This document shows, piece by piece, positions 48,814 through 61,053 of a stretch of DNA of 64,000 bases. Made by a program: the position numbers and the translations under genes. Source of the DNA: Escherichia phage vB_EfeM_pEP20. The stretch lies in the sequence record OQ743992. The stretch is one strand, 5' to 3'. The notes below the pieces were generated by a model that saw only the letters and a program-made list of their open reading frames with translations, did no database searches and was not told the origin of the DNA. Positions within the stretch are counted from its first letter, which is position 1; each line of letters starts with the position of its first letter.

Positions 48814-49185
48814 TTACTTTTCAGTATTCTTTGTGTTCTTTTCAGTAATAGCTTGGAGAGCTGATACTGATTGAGCCAGATTGTTCACACTATCAGAGAA
48901 TTTATCAAGAGTCTTAGTAAGTTTTGCGTTCTCACCCTTAACATTCTCTAACTGAACTTTCTGGTTCTCCATCCCTAGCTGAAGCAGCCTCATATCAGAC
49001 TGTAAATCACGAATAGCTGAATAATTACTTTTGGAATAATTATCTAACTGCTGTAACTTTGTTGTGATAGACACTTCTTGTTTACCATCCGAAACTTGCA
49101 TGGTGGTATACATCCCAATAACACTAAAAATACCAACTACAATTGCACCAATATTATTTTTAAAAGCTTCCTCTAGCCACTTCAT
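48814..49185 (-). CDS. Membrane-anchored coiled-coil protein (123 aa)
   Basis: N-terminal TM IGAIVVGIFSVIGMY then heptad-rich region. Confidence 0.4.
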   Translation of the reverse strand: MKWLEEAFKNNIGAIVVGIFSVIGMYTTMQVSDGKQEVSITTKLQQLDNYSKSNYSAIRDLQSDMRLLQLGMENQKVQLENVKGENAKLTKTLDKFSDSVNNLAQSVSALQAITEKNTKNTEK

Positions 49186-49379
49186 TTATTCTCCCCCTTA
49201 AAAGCTTTTTCTAAGTTATCTACGAACTCATCATCAATAGGTGTGTCTGTTTTACTAGCAAGATATCTTGCAAGCCTAAAGAACACTTTCTCAATCATGT
49301 ATTCACTTAGAAGGGATAAAATGAGTTTCCAGAAGAAGCTACCTAGATTTTTTAGAAGAATTGCTAGGATTGTAGGCAT
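49182..49379 (-). CDS. Small membrane protein (65 aa), holin-like size
   Basis: Hydrophobic N-terminus; ATGA overlap with downstream gene. Confidence 0.35.
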   Translation of the reverse strand: MPTILAILLKNLGSFFWKLILSLLSEYMIEKVFFRLARYLASKTDTPIDDEFVDNLEKAFKGENK

Positions 49380-49458: not shown

Positions 49459-51816
49459 TTAAGCAGTTCTTACCCAAGCCATTAACTTATAGAACTGGTT
49501 AGTAACACTAAATGCTGAACCAGAACCAGTACCACCTGTGTTACCGCTAACTGTGTGGCTGTGAGCACCAATACCAACAGTGTGCGCGTGGTTGCCAGTT
49601 GTGTTGGTTACACCTGTCCAAGTTCTTGACGCGTGGAAATCAGCAGCAGCACCGTAAGTGAAGTCAGAGCCTGTGAAGCCATGTGAAGCCTGAGCACTAC
49701 CCATCTGAAACGCACCGCCCGCAGTGTAGAATGCACTGTTATCACTTCTGAACCAACCAACCACACCAGAAATCTCCATGTTACCTCTATCGTGAGCATG
49801 GTTGCCAGTCGTATTTGTCGCCTTAGTACCATAATCAAATGATGAAGTGGTAGAAGAGAAACTATGCGTGTGTGAAGGTAAGTTACCAACAGATAACGTT
49901 ACAGAGTCTGAACCCCCAGTTGTAGCAACATCTGAACCGTTTGCTGCTGCAATTCTAATAGTTCTACCAACACCATTATTCAGGTACGTCCAAGTTAGAC
50001 CAGGAAGTGCTGTATTAGGGTTAACATTACTGTTAAACCACGTCACAATACCTACTGGATAGATTTTATTCAGGTCTGTAGAGTTACTAATTGCTTCTGC
50101 AATCTTCTGGTCAGTTTCAGCTTTAGTGTATGCACCAATCTCTGAAGGGGTAGGTTTCTGAGCTTCAGTGTAAACCTTAGACCATTCAACCTCAAAGCCA
50201 AGTGTGTCTCTGGCTGACCTGTACCACATCCCACCATTTTTCGATTCAAATCTTAATTGTGCAGATGGTGTTAGAGCTTTCGCATTAGAGGCCATGTGCA
50301 AGACTAAACGGTTTTGCCCGCTAGATTTTGTCTCAAGATAGATTCCTGAGGGTTGGTCCCAAGCCACACCACCAGCAGCCTCGGTCTTCGAAGCTCTGAA
50401 TGCTGACCAGAAATACTTTGAATCGGCTTCGGCTTTACCGTAATACCTTGCATCAAAGTTTGTGAAGTTGCTAGGTTGTACTTGACCACCAATTACTAAG
50501 TTTGCATTAATTGATACTTCGGAACCAATGCTTAGGCTTTTACCAGTTTTATAGTTATACAAACTAACAGTGTCACTACCGTCGTCATTGCCAACATACC
50601 ACCTATTCGTTCCATCATAATCCTTACCCCTAATGTAAAGTGCGGCGGTTGATTTTCCTTGTAACACGAGAGCTTCACCATTAGTGTTAATAACCTGCTT
50701 TGCAGTGAACGTGTTACTTCCATTAGTTCTTGCAATCGTACTTAATGTTGCTGCCGGAATATATCTAGAGTCGATGTTAGCCCAATCTGAAGGTTGAACT
50801 TGACCAGTGATTCTGACATTTTTATTTGCTGATACTCCAGCAGCATCTAAGACCAAAGAGGTGTTAGTGGTGTAGTTGTAGATAGTTACACCATCACCTG
50901 AGCTACCTTTACCAAAATACCATAAGTTCCCGCCTTCATAATCTTTTGCAAGTAGATACAGGGATTCGTTTGCTGATGCACATTGCAATGTGATAGCAGC
51001 AGCATTCGAGATAACACTCATAGTCCTAAATGTATTAGCACCTGTAAAAGTGTTATTACCAGCTAACTGTGCAAATCTCTGATTAGCGACTGTCTGAGTA
51101 AAGTATCTAGCATCTAAGTTAGAGAAATCTGAAGGTTGGACTTGACCAGTGATTCTAAGTGACTTATTAAATGCTGCTGTTGCATCAAGGGTTAACATTG
51201 CACCAGTAGCATGATTGTACAAATATACATTAGTACTGTTTGCATTTCCCTGTCCAACATACCAAGTTTGCTGGTTATTAGAATCTCTACCTTGAATATA
51301 TGAAGCACCTGCATTGGTTGCCTTCTTAAGAGTTAACTGCTCACCATCAGTTACGATTGCTTGCCTAATGCTGAAGTTATTTGTGACAGCAAGCCTTGCA
51401 TATCTTGCATCATTCTCTTCATTAGTTCTCATACCAAGTTCATTAGGGCTTGGTTTATTCAAAGTATGATAAACAGTTGCCGACCTTGAAGCATCTGCAA
51501 TAGTGAGTTTAAGACCATTTGAGTTAATTTTAAAAGTCTTTAAAATATCCCCAATAGTAATCTCAGAAGAATCTGTTGGGTCAAATACAGCCTTACCACC
51601 GTAAAGTAACTTGACAATACCTAAATCCCCCGTCATAGTGCTCCCAGCAATCTGAACAAACCTTTCTAGTTTGAAGGAAGCTAAGAAGTCTTGATAGGTC
51701 ATTCTACGGTCTTCGTCGCCCAACATTTCAGGTCTTTTCTTAACTCTGATGTGCAATAGGTCTTCTGAACGAATTGTGTCGATTGAGTTTAATTGACTCA
51801 ATTTGTAATCTGCCAT
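49459..51816 (-). CDS. Tail fibre protein (785 aa) with His-rich C-terminal module
   Basis: Repetitive Gly/Ser/Thr-rich sequence; HTHS/HAH motifs; C-terminus shared with next fibre gene (AFSV...W.RTA). Confidence 0.6.
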   Translation of the reverse strand: MADYKLSQLNSIDTIRSEDLLHIRVKKRPEMLGDEDRRMTYQDFLASFKLERFVQIAGSTMTGDLGIVKLLYGGKAVFDPTDSSEITIGDILKTFKINSNGLKLTIADASRSATVYHTLNKPSPNELGMRTNEENDARYARLAVTNNFSIRQAIVTDGEQLTLKKATNAGASYIQGRDSNNQQTWYVGQGNANSTNVYLYNHATGAMLTLDATAAFNKSLRITGQVQPSDFSNLDARYFTQTVANQRFAQLAGNNTFTGANTFRTMSVISNAAAITLQCASANESLYLLAKDYEGGNLWYFGKGSSGDGVTIYNYTTNTSLVLDAAGVSANKNVRITGQVQPSDWANIDSRYIPAATLSTIARTNGSNTFTAKQVINTNGEALVLQGKSTAALYIRGKDYDGTNRWYVGNDDGSDTVSLYNYKTGKSLSIGSEVSINANLVIGGQVQPSNFTNFDARYYGKAEADSKYFWSAFRASKTEAAGGVAWDQPSGIYLETKSSGQNRLVLHMASNAKALTPSAQLRFESKNGGMWYRSARDTLGFEVEWSKVYTEAQKPTPSEIGAYTKAETDQKIAEAISNSTDLNKIYPVGIVTWFNSNVNPNTALPGLTWTYLNNGVGRTIRIAAANGSDVATTGGSDSVTLSVGNLPSHTHSFSSTTSSFDYGTKATNTTGNHAHDRGNMEISGVVGWFRSDNSAFYTAGGAFQMGSAQASHGFTGSDFTYGAAADFHASRTWTGVTNTTGNHAHTVGIGAHSHTVSGNTGGTGSGSAFSVTNQFYKLMAWVRTA

Positions 51817-51862
51817 TATAAATTTTCCTCTTAAAAGGGGCTACAAAGCCCCTGTAAAGAAA

Positions 51863-53038
51863 TTAAGCTGTTCTCTGCCATACATATACGACAAAAGATG
51901 GCTGCTCAACACTGAAAGCTTGACCACCACCCACAGAACCAGATGTCCCTGAGTGTGTATGTTCAGAGTTAGAGACAGTAACAGTACCCGTATGACTGTG
52001 TGAACCAATATTAACAGTGTGGCTATGAGCACCAATTGCAACAGTATGGCTATGAGCACCAGATGATGCAGTTGTGCCTGAGAAGCTATGGGTGTGAGCA
52101 CCTGCTAAATCAGTATAAATATTATTATCAATCCCAGCATAAGCAGATGCAGTAATAGCATTTGACCCACTTCTATCATTACCCCTCAGTGGTACTCTAT
52201 GGTTATGGTTACCATCATTACTTGTCGTGCCGCTAAACGTATGAGTGTGAGCACCAGCACTATTAGTCGTTTTTGTACCGTAATCAAAAGTTGATGTACT
52301 TTTTGAACCATAATCAAAACTAGAGATAGATACGCTTGCAGAGTGTGTGTGACCACCACCTGTTAGATAGATAGAGTGAGTATGTGCTGGTAAATTATTA
52401 TTTGTTAATGCTACAGTCTGAGAACCAAACGTTGAACCAACAGGTCTAGAATCTGTATCATAACCAACTAGTGCTCTACCTTTAGAAACTAACTCCCAAG
52501 TACCTCCACAAAGCAAGTAAGTGGATGGGTTAGCAGAGTTAACAGATAGATGAATAGTCCCTACTGGATATGATGCTTGAATAGCTTTGTATAAATTATT
52601 CACTGCTCTCGCGGTAGCGTACTTATCAGCATCTTCGTTGTACAGGTTAGATGTTGTCCAGTTCTGAACATTACTTAAACCGACCTGTGCTTTAGTTGTA
52701 TTGTGTGGGTTACTTTTGTCGTCAATATGCTGCTGAATTAAGTTATTCACTTCATCTGACGACATAATTTGTAGATTAGCTCTTGCCTCAGCAACATTTA
52801 CAATGTCTGACAAGTTATTAGCTGCAACTAATTGAAGAGAGTTAATAACATTATCAAGACCTACTTGTGATTTAGTTACACCATGAGGGTTATTCCTCAA
52901 AGATGCGTGAGGTGATAACAACTGTTCAAGCGTACATCTTTTATCCTCAACACCTTGCTTAAGATGGAAGATATCACTCAAATCAATTGGTAAGGCCGCT
53001 TGTGGCAAGGCACTAATTTGAATTTCACCTACTGCCAT
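51863..53038 (-). CDS. Tail fibre protein (391 aa) with HxH repeats
   Basis: GAHTHSFSGTT, GAHSHTV repeats; C-terminal AFSVEQPSFVVYVWQRTA. Confidence 0.6.
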   Translation of the reverse strand: MAVGEIQISALPQAALPIDLSDIFHLKQGVEDKRCTLEQLLSPHASLRNNPHGVTKSQVGLDNVINSLQLVAANNLSDIVNVAEARANLQIMSSDEVNNLIQQHIDDKSNPHNTTKAQVGLSNVQNWTTSNLYNEDADKYATARAVNNLYKAIQASYPVGTIHLSVNSANPSTYLLCGGTWELVSKGRALVGYDTDSRPVGSTFGSQTVALTNNNLPAHTHSIYLTGGGHTHSASVSISSFDYGSKSTSTFDYGTKTTNSAGAHTHTFSGTTSNDGNHNHRVPLRGNDRSGSNAITASAYAGIDNNIYTDLAGAHTHSFSGTTASSGAHSHTVAIGAHSHTVNIGSHSHTGTVTVSNSEHTHSGTSGSVGGGQAFSVEQPSFVVYVWQRTA

Positions 53039-53040
53039 TA

Positions 53041-53343
53041 TTAAGCTCCTACATATTCATATGTGTAAAGGTTTCTTGTACTTGTTGATGCAGTCCCAGT
53101 CTCAGACTTAATCAGATTCCAGCCATTAGCCACTAAATCTGGTTGCTCGGTTGCATATGAGCGAACTTCACCAACAGTGCCATTTACTTTATTCAGCAGG
53201 TAGTTGATAATATAGTTGAACCACTGTCTACCCATAGGCTCACCCTTTAAAAGACCTGTCTCTTGAATTTCTGGTGGTGGTAAAACTTTTAACTGATTAC
53301 CATCAGTATCCACTTCATTTGTAGACCAATTTAAAACTGCCAT
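53041..53343 (-). CDS. Hypothetical tail/baseplate-associated protein (100 aa)
   Basis: ORF in tail module. Confidence 0.4.
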
Positions 53344-54197
53344 TAAGAATTTCCTTCTTGTTGTGATTTATCTTTTCTGCCTTTGACAATTTGTGCAACC
53401 TCAGCCATGATTCCATATGCACCACCTGCAACAGCTTCTTTACCAACGATGAAATATCCACTATTATTAGACCTATCTACAGTCATGTAATCATCACTCT
53501 GTGAGTTTGCTGTTCTGTCAACCTTAAAGTAACCATCAATAACACCAGTATCTGCAAGACTACCTACTAAGTTAGACTCCAGAGAGCCACCAGCGTTATT
53601 TGTGACAAGACCTCTGTTAGCATCAGTTACAAACCAGTTCTCTTTATCATCCACAATAGCAAGTGCTGAATCAGCAACCTCTACAGGTGTCCAAGCAGTC
53701 CCCTTTAAAGTAACATCTCTTAAGATAACAGCAGAACCAGTGGTTGTTGCAGAAATCTTTGATAGCGTATATGCAGCATCAAGAACGTTTTTTCTGGTGT
53801 TAATACGGATAACGATACCACCAGTCTTAGGAGTAATATGCTCAAAAATCTGAGAGAAAGTTGCACCATATAGCGTCATAATTGCTTTTTGCAAGAATGT
53901 TGGAGTAGTGTCAGAGCGTCTTAGGAAGATTTGGATATAAAGCATAGCTCTATATGTTTCATCATCAGCACCTAAAGGTCTAGGAACTTTAATCAGTGAG
54001 CCAATATTATCAAGTTGTTGGCCTACTGACGTCCTAATATTTCTCTCTGTGTGCATCTGCCAGCAAACATCCTCTAATGTTTGTAACTCATCAGTGATTG
54101 CTTTCAAGATACTTGTGTAGATAAACTTATCTTTAAACTGTGTTACAGTTCGTTCATCAAGTGTTTTGTAATAAACACTATCAATCTTTTCAAACAT
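53343..54197 (-). CDS. Putative baseplate wedge protein (284 aa)
   Basis: Position between baseplate-J-like gene and fibres. Confidence 0.4.
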
Positions 54198-54199
54198 TA

Positions 54200-55668
54200 T
54201 TACTCCTTAGTGATGGTATACTGGCTACTTTCCCAAACAGTATATTGGTCACCGTCAACAGTAATTCTTGCTGTAGTATACTGCCCGTCACTAGGTGGAA
54301 CTGATTGGTTATTTGATAATGCTACTTTAACTTCATTAATCTCAATACCTTTAATTACGTCATAGATATGTCCATAGGTTCTGTTAGGGATAACATCATT
54401 ACCAACCTTAAGAGTTCTTCCGTAGGCATTAATACCTTGTACAATGCTGTCTCTGATATCCTCTTCAGGGATTGTCAAGCTTTCTTCATCATATAAAGAG
54501 TAAGAGACTTTAACAAATGCGTATTTTGGTGTTGGTCTGCTGAAATAAATATTATGTGCCAAACCACCTAAATCATGGGCTGTACCAAAAATTGAGCCAT
54601 AAGCCCTAATACCAGCAGGTTTTGTATCCCAGATTGCTTGAGCTACATTATCATTTTGACCACCAACTACGACAATCTTAAAAGATTTTGGTGGGAGACC
54701 TTCTGAGTTTGTCTCTTCAGTATCATTTTCAACACCTGAAGCATCTGAGACACCTTGAACTCTTTTAACAGCAGCTACAATTGCATCTAAAGTCCCTACA
54801 CCAGTAACTGCTAAGGATTCTAAATATCTCTGTCTAAGTTCTGTGTCAGTTTCTTCGTTTCTACCAGTTGTTAAGTCATATCTGTTATAAATACTGTCAA
54901 GACCATCAACAGTTGTCTCAATCTCAATAAGCGTACCAGCCAAAGCAGGGGTAGCACCCACCTCTTCAGCTACTACATCTGAAATAGTTGTAATTTTTGT
55001 AAAGGTCAGAAATGTTGTCGCAGTGACAACCATAGGGTTTGTTCTGGCAATGATATCACCCTCATCTTTATAGACTCTCAATGATGCTCCATCATTAATG
55101 ACTTCTGCCTTTGCTACAATACCACCATTAATAGCTTCTGCTAATTTTGTTAGAAGTGTGGTGATTGTGTCTGATGAGGTTGGTTTATATGAGAAAATGA
55201 CGTTATCAATAATAATAACATAATCTGCATCAGTTCGTAAAGAGTTAACTTCAAGGACAGCTTCAACACAATATGATGGGGTTAGGGTAATGTTGTTAAC
55301 TGGATAAAAGATATTTCCGGCAGTACTTCTTAATCTTGTTGTTGAAGGAATGGTAGCACCAGTCGTTCCAGTAAACTCTACCTGACCTCTTGTTGCCTGT
55401 GCAACATATCTATATACAGCATTTAAAGCTGTAATATCATCAAGGTTAAAGCCTTCGGCCTTGTCAATTGTTCCACCGTCATAGACTTCTGATAGAATCT
55501 CATGGGTATCTGCTAAAGACCTTGCAATTGAAGCTAGGAAGAGTCCTAATTGACTATCTTCAGAAACGTCAAGGTTTGGTGAAATATCTCTAAGAAGTCT
55601 TGATTTGATATTATCAAAAATCTCCTGATATCTTAGAGTTTGTAATCCTGTTGTAGTTAGTCCTGCCA

Positions 55669-55669
<1 letters not shown>
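54200..55669 (-). CDS. Putative baseplate J-like protein (489 aa)
   Basis: Size and position (Mu/P2-like order). Confidence 0.45.

Positions 55670-61053
<5,384 letters not shown>

Follow-up and report, generated by a model that had tools for sequence, protein, structure and literature searches.

The closest described relatives of the two tail fibres encoded by Escherichia phage vB_EfeM_pEP20 (sequence record OQ743992) are those of the Felixounavirus Bas63 and of phage Sf14. The cryo-electron microscopy study of Bas63 (Sci Adv 2025) described a domain-level topology of collar, needle and head in both its short fibre (gp26) and its long fibre (gp27), together with N-terminal baseplate-binding domains; it also counted the His-x-His (HxH) motifs, mapped the highest variability to the tips, and noted the variability of the beta-helix repeats as unexplained. 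The study of Sf14, a Mooglevirus, described fibres of 391 and 792 amino acids (aa) with the same organisation (gp52 and gp53). In the Felix O1 GenBank record both genes are named "putative tail fiber protein GP37", as is gene 82 of wV8.

The reference structure for such tips is that of T4 gp37 (PDB 2XGF; Bartual et al., 2010), in which, according to later papers, seven HxH motifs bind seven iron ions that lie along the needle. In a gp37-type tip the chain reverses direction at the head and runs back to the collar, where it is part of the mature structure (Bas63 study). Host-range mutations in T4 map to the gp37 head, which contacts lipopolysaccharide (LPS) and OmpC.

A gp37-like tip in both fibres, conserved HxH motifs and variable tips have therefore already been published for this group. 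Here we compare these systems with the two fibre genes found in a 64,000-nucleotide (nt) stretch of vB_EfeM_pEP20 DNA (hereafter the window). Felixounavirus genomes (DE17, KEP2, HY02 and O157 typing phages) are 91-96% identical to the region in DNA, and judged by its sequence the window belongs to a Felixounavirus, i.e. a Felix O1-like myophage. The orthologous fibres of Bas63 and Sf14 have the same order, sizes and domain plan as those described below.

Two adjacent fibre genes with a common C-terminal module

49459..51816, minus strand: long tail fibre gene, 785 aa; phrog_4277 (bit score 1298); equivalent of Bas63 gp27 and Sf14 gp53
51863..53038, minus strand: short tail fibre gene, 391 aa; phrog_2097 "tail fiber protein" (E=1.6e-138); equivalent of Bas63 gp26 and Sf14 gp52

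Both PHROG matches are full-length, and the 785-aa product is 100% identical to the protein annotated as tail fibre protein of vB_EfeM_pEP20. In the long fibre, Pfam detects gp37_trimer three times, gp37_C, and a weak Gp10_C. The original prediction, made from the letters of the sequence and a list of open reading frames (ORFs), had described 785-aa and 391-aa ORFs that diverge in their N-terminal and central parts and end in similar His-rich repeats with a conserved tail. Both ORFs, with the motifs and endings it quoted, lie exactly at these coordinates: GAHTHSFSGTT occupies residues 313-323 of the 391-aa protein, GAHSHTV is present in both proteins, and their endings read AFSVTNQFYKLMAWVRTA and AFSVEQPSFVVYVWQRTA.

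The proposed C-terminal similarity is significant on alignment. BLASTP aligned residues 586-785 of the 785-aa protein with residues 157-391 of the 391-aa protein (E=9e-19, 32% identity), and HHalign of the two homolog families gave a probability of 99.8% (E=4e-30). The divergence of the remainder was borne out as well: between the N-terminal and central parts of the two fibres we detected no similarity except a short motif in the baseplate-binding region (hhalign E=0.012, probability 3.5%), on which we base no homology claim for the two N-terminal domains; it reads EDKRCT in the short fibre (52931-52948) and EDRRMT in the long fibre (51697-51714). The Sf14 study described the corresponding EDRKCT and EDRKMT motifs, which show the same Cys/Met difference.

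Match to the T4 gp37 tip

Residues 146-361 of the short fibre matched PDB 2XGF with E=2.8e-27 and residues 643-764 of the long fibre with E=1.1e-8; the corresponding BLASTP scores against T4 gp37 were 95.5 and 47.4 bits. A joint alignment shows little or no variation in the YPVG collar, SSFDYGTK, the HxH motifs, the IGAHxHTV box or the terminal R-x-A; in it, the returning needle of the short fibre aligns with T4 gp37 HSH966 through HGH998, and the T4 gp37 counterpart of the AFSV...W.RTA ending is the collar-closing strand ...NIAFNYIVRLA. On these alignments, both fibres appear to end in a T4 gp37-type tip of collar, needle and head. The repeats that had been called metal-site-like align with the seven iron-binding motifs of T4 gp37 (three on its outgoing strand and four on its returning strand), which supports the view that they represent real metal-site architecture. 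The segments delimited in this way are as follows.

Short fibre:
52385..52603, minus strand: collar, about aa 146-218 (YPVG...NLPAHTH); Pfam Gp10_C over residues 154-276, matches to T4 gp10 and gp37 structures in the PDB, predicted local distance difference test (pLDDT) 88-91
52199..52384, minus strand: outgoing needle, HxH 1-4 (H219/221, H230/232, H264/266, H278/280); His conservation 0.61 to 1.0
52097..52198, minus strand: head, about aa 281-314, putative receptor-contacting tip; least conserved stretch among 72 orthologues
51953..52096, minus strand: returning needle, HxH 5-9 (H315/317, 329/331, 338/340, 347/349, 360/362)
51863..51952, minus strand: C-terminal closing segment GGGQAFSVEQPSFVVYVWQRTA and stop codon; conserved in orthologues

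Long fibre:
51367..51816, minus strand: N-terminal baseplate-binding region, aa 1-150; 90-100% conserved in 120 homologs
50407..51366, minus strand: beta-helix repeat shaft, aa 151-470; Pfam gp37_trimer in three stretches
50062..50406, minus strand: mid domain, aa 471-585, Pfam gp37_C / phage Mu fibre S type; PF12604 E=5e-14, PDB 8JU3 E=8e-18
49873..50061, minus strand: collar, aa 586-648; aligns with the short-fibre and T4 gp37 collars, 97-100% conserved in homologs
49792..49872, minus strand: outgoing needle, HxH 1-2 (H649/651, H673/675) and SSFDYGTK
49591..49791, minus strand: head, aa 676-742 (67 aa), putative receptor-contacting tip; 15-95% identity among homologs
49459..49590, minus strand: returning needle, HxH 3-4 (H743/745, H752/754) in the HTVGIGAHSHTV His box
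within 49459..49590, minus strand: closing segment GSGSAFSVTNQFYKLMAWVRTA and stop codon

The likeness to T4 gp37 covers the collar, SSFDYGTK, IGAHxHTV and HxH motifs on either side of a head segment; it probably extends to a six-stranded needle with these motifs on its outgoing and returning strands, whose C-terminal strand would lead back to the collar. There are also clear differences. T4 gp37 has seven HxH motifs, as opposed to nine and four here; its head is unrelated to either of the heads here, and that of the long fibre has roughly double its length (a gap of 70 residues rather than 37). The T4 fibre is a jointed assembly of four proteins, whereas those described here are single proteins fixed directly to a simple baseplate. 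The collars of both fibres share the T4 gp10/gp12 collar type and Pfam Gp10_C (E=9.7e-19 for the short fibre; 7e-5, under the curated cut-off, for the long fibre), and that of the short fibre also matches gp10 structures. In T4 gp10, however, this domain serves baseplate architecture, whereas here it precedes a receptor-binding needle.

Number and conservation of the HxH motifs

The long fibre has four HxH motifs, at 649 and 673 before the head and at 743 and 752 after it; the short fibre has nine, four before the head (219, 230, 264, 278) and five after it (315, 329, 338, 347, 360). None of 5000 whole-protein shuffles reached counts of 4 and 9, and when the C-terminal segments alone were shuffled these counts were reached in 0.08% (long) and 0% (short) of cases. 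The original prediction would have fallen had these His residues not been conserved in homologs, and they are. In the long fibre, conservation across the 120 homologs is 100% for each of the eight motif His, as compared with 24-27% for the non-motif His residues H712 and H728 in the head. In the 72 short-fibre orthologues the conservation of motif His averages 0.91, versus 0.42 for the remaining residues of the same stretch, and the middle position of the motif is free to vary, with S, T, N, A, D, Q and Y among the residues seen there.

The number of motifs among short-fibre orthologues is 6, 7 or 9. Within the short-fibre needle we also found a 27-nt (9-aa) tandem repeat encoding GAHSHTVxI (52013-52066; two copies, 85% match). 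Because of this repeat and the varying motif number, we suggest that the short-fibre needle lengthens by duplication of such units, and that its length changes through their gain and loss.

A common scaffold with different heads

The segments between the two needle strands behave differently from their surroundings. In both proteins they are the least conserved parts among homologs, and the two heads (about 676-742 in the long fibre, about 281-314 in the short fibre) showed no resemblance to one another in BLASTP or in the joint alignment. In the short fibre, the lowest AlphaFold2 (AF2) confidence falls at residues 286-305, and DNA identity to Felix O1 and humlepung falls to 38-45% over the head. 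The outgoing strand of that needle also carries the FDYG[ST]K motif in duplicate. At the other extreme, the ending of the long fibre is 96-100% conserved in 120 homologs.

Since T4 host-range mutations map to the head, and since the head segments here do not align, the part that the two genes share is the scaffold (collar, His-box needle and closing C-terminal strand) and not the putative receptor-contacting head. The suggestion that the two fibres share a receptor-binding tip is therefore correct in part: collar, needle and closing strand are homologous, but the heads are unrelated, so that the tip proper is not shared.

Exchange of head cassettes between phages

Long fibres of this group come in two tip architectures of nearly equal total length. 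The first, with four HxH motifs and a 70-residue gap, is found in this phage, HY02, DE17 and NBEco004, and the "four HxH plus large head" tips of HY02, wV8, KEP2 and Sf14 resemble that of this phage; the second, with six HxH motifs and a gap of 34-35 residues, is found in Felix O1 and humlepung. For Bas63, six HxH motifs were reported in the long fibre and seven in the short fibre, in contrast to the four and nine here.

The same long-fibre head also occurs outside the Ounavirinae. Gene 37 (1078 aa) of the Tequatrovirus CJY920 (170.5 kilobases, kb) contains the long-fibre head cassette with 85.8% of nt identical over a 302-nt stretch (49550-49851 in the window; long fibre aa 665-756, approximately) and with an identity of 88-90% in aa. 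The junctions lie at SSFDYGTK on the left and in the HTVGIGAHxHTV His box on the right. CJY920 keeps T4-type flanks, namely the collar, extra His boxes and the C-terminus, and its adjoining gp38 is 99.5% identical to that of T4. A version of the long-fibre head that is 64-69% identical in aa is found in the Mosigvirus ZQ3. These alignments indicate that head swapping occurs between phages, and across families, with junctions in conserved motifs. Exchange at conserved motifs or His boxes has been proposed for the T-even adhesins (Tetart et al., 1996, 1998); the conserved-motif exchange is alike here, with FDYGTK and GIGAHxH as the junctions, and the difference is that the partner belongs to another family (Ounavirinae versus Straboviridae).

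A mosaic shaft in the long fibre

We compared the DNA of the long fibre gene in sliding windows with that of six relatives (HY02, DE17, NBEco004, KEP2, Felix O1 and humlepung).

about 51390-51150: beta-helix repeat 1; HY02, DE17 and NBEco004 96-100% (93-96% in the first 60-nt comparison window, at the left edge)
about 51390-51150: core of beta-helix repeat 1; KEP2, Felix O1 and humlepung 41-61%
about 51030-50850: beta-helix repeat 2; KEP2 and NBEco004 91-98%
about 50730-50190: repeat 3 and Mu-S-like domain; humlepung 95-100%
50130-49890: collar DNA; 90-100% in all six phages
about 49830-49590: needle and head DNA; KEP2 95-98%, the others 31-85%
49530-49459: C-terminal end; 85-100% in all six phages

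The shaft (50190-51390), which also matched T7 gp17 (PDB 4A0T) with E=0.0018, thus consists of three blocks. The Felixounaviruses that match a block at 91-100% DNA identity differ from block to block, and the others are only 28-75% identical to it. Conserved QVQPSD... linkers lie between the blocks, and the identities of the protein segments agree with the DNA mosaic. In the HY02-type fibres of 847 aa, the mid-fibre position is taken by a different module. The shaft blocks, as read from these comparisons, appear to be independently exchanged, and this suggests that the beta-helix repeat variability left unexplained in the Bas63 study arises via cassette recombination.

Host association of the two heads

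For the long fibre we searched with the head alone, and for the short fibre with residues 268-326 (52061-52237), which comprise the head and one HxH motif on each side. The long-fibre head was found in 59 phage records, 57 of them Ounavirinae-sized and two from the Straboviridae. Their hosts were O157:H7, Shiga toxin-producing E. coli (STEC) O103/O111 and Shigella (20 records), plus two Citrobacter and one Salmonella. None of the 59 was isolated on K-12 MG1655, as compared with 20-28 Felixounavirus records from that strain in the collection. The short-fibre head was found in 62 phage records, nearly all with O157, STEC or Shigella hosts, and none of the 45 listed of these 62 came from K-12 MG1655. 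Weak matches to the short-fibre head (54% aa) were also seen in two jumbo E. coli phages of about 350 kb, OQ411014 (EJP2) and MT446416 (TH47), the only non-Ounavirinae-sized matches among the same 45.

Both head types are therefore found almost exclusively in phages of O157, STEC and Shigella. This agrees with the expectation that the tips bear on host range and supports a role for both heads in it, as a correlation and not as proof. Felixounaviruses have been reported to target LPS rather than protein receptors.

We tentatively extend this to a broader proposal, which we hold to be possible rather than probable: the long-fibre head cassette, consisting of the inner HxH pair and the 67-aa head, may be a receptor-binding unit that is portable across families, with the His-box needle as a universal socket, and together with the short head it could specify an LPS receptor of the O157/STEC/Shigella type. 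If so, the same head would fold both in a context that contains gp38 (CJY920) and in chaperone-free ones. A shared R3-type LPS core may underlie such a receptor.

A model for the fibre tips and its alternatives

We are highly confident that the two genes encode the short and long baseplate fibres of a Felixounavirus, both with a gp37-type metal needle tip and a variable head. The model starts from what we observed ourselves, namely homology, conservation of the motifs, mosaic exchange and an association with hosts; trimer topology, metal binding, contact between head and receptor, and a binding order of long and then short fibre are inferred from T4, Bas63 and Sf14. Each fibre would be a homotrimer, in which every chain would run through the collar, an outward needle strand, a small distal head and a return strand, giving a six-stranded beta needle per trimer, and the last 20 or so residues (AFSV...W.RTA) would re-enter the collar. 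In each HxH layer, six inward-pointing His residues from the three chains would bind one axial metal ion (iron in T4), for a predicted nine metal sites in the short fibre and four in the long fibre. The conserved scaffold would consist of the collar and the metal-stapled needle and, by analogy with T4, specificity for an LPS-type receptor would reside in the head. Whole head cassettes would be exchanged, even between families, through flanking patches of homology: FDYGTK, GIGAHxHTV, the collar and the C-terminal strand.

Several results weigh against this reading. T4 gp37 requires the gp38 chaperone. A tblastn search with T4 gp38 found no gp38 or Tfa homolog in the window (best E 0.78), and a gp38 search of the phage collection gave 348 records, with no Ounavirinae-sized genome among the 40 listed. 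The AF2 model of the short fibre, a monomer built from a 70-sequence alignment, was of only moderate confidence (pLDDT 69; predicted template modelling score 0.32). Some of its features do speak for the proposed tip: the collar is confident, ladders of short strands lie on both sides of a head of low confidence, and residues 385-389 form a last strand, a pattern that together with the gp37 alignment favours a chain which doubles back to the collar. When this model was compared with the PDB using Foldseek, the collar alone was matched (top match the T4 gp10 C-terminal domain, 2FKK; probability 0.99, E=0.066); 2XGF was not retrieved, and the needle hairpins drew pore-forming toxins. We regard the needle result as uninformative because the model is one chain of an intertwined trimer. 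Finally, the Felix O1 short fibre has nine HxH motifs by our own count, versus the seven reported for that of Bas63, and because of this discrepancy the number must either vary within the genus or depend on the counting criteria.

Since T4 gp37 needs gp38 and no gp38 or Tfa homolog was found here, folding of these tips must differ in some respect from that in T4. The Sf14 study, too, reported that homologs of the Mu fibre chaperones were not found. The tip family as such is spread over unrelated phages, including the Stf of Ur-lambda, gp37 of TuIa and TuIb, and the fibres of P2-like prophages; those have an adjacent Tfa or gp38 gene, whereas none was detected here. The gp38/Tfa chaperone is an accessory feature of the T4/lambda subgroup and not of the fold.

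The original prediction had read the common module as a swapped or duplicated receptor-binding tip. Swapping is real, but it takes place between phages; a recent duplication of, or swap between, the two genes finds no support at 32% identity. If recent duplication or gene conversion had placed the same receptor-binding tip in this phage twice, one would understand why the genes lie side by side in one orientation with similar endings, and why they are 86% identical over a 37-nt His-box stretch. That stretch and a 17-nt FDYGTK patch are, however, the only DNA common to both genes, with no similarity past these two short motifs; the aa identity of the module is only 32%; the head segments do not align; and T4 gp37 scores higher against the short-fibre tip (95.5 bits) than does the neighbouring long-fibre tip (47.8 bits). 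Moreover, the two-fibre arrangement must be old because it is present throughout the Ounavirinae, in Felixounavirus and Mooglevirus and also in Erwinia and Hafnia relatives. We therefore consider such an event very improbable, and regard the two tips as old paralogues with no recent duplication.

Two other explanations concern the function of parts of the module. The His-rich stretch might itself be a receptor-binding or metal-scavenging surface, its exposed His residues serving host ligands or siderophore-type receptors, and some papers have indeed suggested that fibre iron may dock on siderophore receptors as a "Trojan horse". In 2XGF, though, the HxH motifs coordinate iron along the needle, and the host-range mutations of T4 lie in the head and not in the needle; the His residues here are invariant across phages with different hosts while the head varies, which is the pattern of a scaffold rather than of a specificity determinant, and the reported target of Felixounaviruses is LPS. 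We think this view highly unlikely. As to the AFSV...W.RTA ending, its strong conservation in the 120 long-fibre homologs and the lack of a detectable separate chaperone gene, in the window and among the listed collection matches, would suit an intramolecular chaperone of the kind found in endosialidase and T5 pb1-type fibres, which is removed by cleavage once the trimer has formed. But the segment is short, at about 25 aa, no Pfam match to peptidase S74 or an intramolecular chaperone was found at E<=0.1, and it corresponds to the terminal segment of T4 gp37, in a tip type whose chain extends back to the collar as part of the mature structure; a cleaved chaperone is barely credible here. A gp37-type needle with a variable head remains our preferred reading of both tips.

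Baseplate genes and other features of the region

The fibre genes follow a set of baseplate genes on the same strand.

same strand, upstream of the fibres: baseplate hub and baseplate spike genes, so named in the HY02 record
56088..56711, minus strand: 207-aa ORF in spike position; corresponds to the Bas63 puncture apparatus
same strand, between the spike and the 489-aa gene: 139-aa wedge gene
53343..55669, minus strand: 284-aa and 489-aa baseplate wedge genes; phrog_4017 "baseplate protein", Pfam Baseplate_J (489 aa)
53041..53343, minus strand: 100-aa ORF, assigned by synteny and size only; phrog_4141, which has no assigned function
48814-49379, minus strand: 65-aa and 123-aa ORFs downstream of the long fibre gene
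48808-48785, minus strand: intrinsic-terminator-like hairpin, 9-base-pair stem followed by ten T residues; strong

The gene order here is 489-aa wedge 2, 284-aa wedge 1, 100-aa ORF, 391-aa fibre and 785-aa fibre. In Bas63, a 489-aa wedge 2 and a 285-aa wedge 1 are followed by gp25 (the long-fibre platform), gp26 (short fibre) and gp27 (long fibre). Order and sizes agree, and the fibre genes are orthologous by sequence, order and size. The 284-aa and 489-aa wedge proteins carry the fibre attachment sites, and the 100-aa protein is probably the long-fibre platform, equivalent to Bas63 gp25 and analogous to T4 gp9, which would attach the long fibre. The 207-aa protein in spike position has another HxH motif at its C-terminal end, which matches the iron-binding di-histidine described for the spikes of Bas63 (H188/H190) and Sf14.

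Of the two ORFs downstream of the fibres, that of 123 aa, whose counterpart in phage humlepung is annotated as a holin, encodes a hydrophobic segment at the N-terminus and a coiled coil. To judge by the gene numbers, it may match Sf14 gp55, a "holin or lysozyme" found in virions via mass spectrometry. A Pfam scan of the 65-aa and 123-aa ORFs gave no chaperone signature, only coiled-coil noise. The terminator-like hairpin lies in the 44-nt gap that separates the late fibre/holin operon from the convergent thymidylate synthase gene. A promoter scan gave a signal no higher than expected from shuffled sequence, and the 64-kb window has no transfer RNA genes. The sign of the guanine-cytosine skew flips at about 36-38 kb and again at about 48-50 kb, the second coinciding with the convergent junction at about 48.8 kb.

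Significance

To the published picture of these fibres our analysis adds precise cassette boundaries, an example of head exchange with T4-like phages, and the association of both head types with a group of hosts. We see useful details in the head cassette that crosses families and in the host association, and no new kind of system. The gp37-type tip offers an explanation for two rigid, metal-stapled fibres and points to the probable site of specificity. The points added here identify the segments to swap, which would be useful for host-range engineering of Felix O1-like phages against Salmonella, O157 and Shigella.

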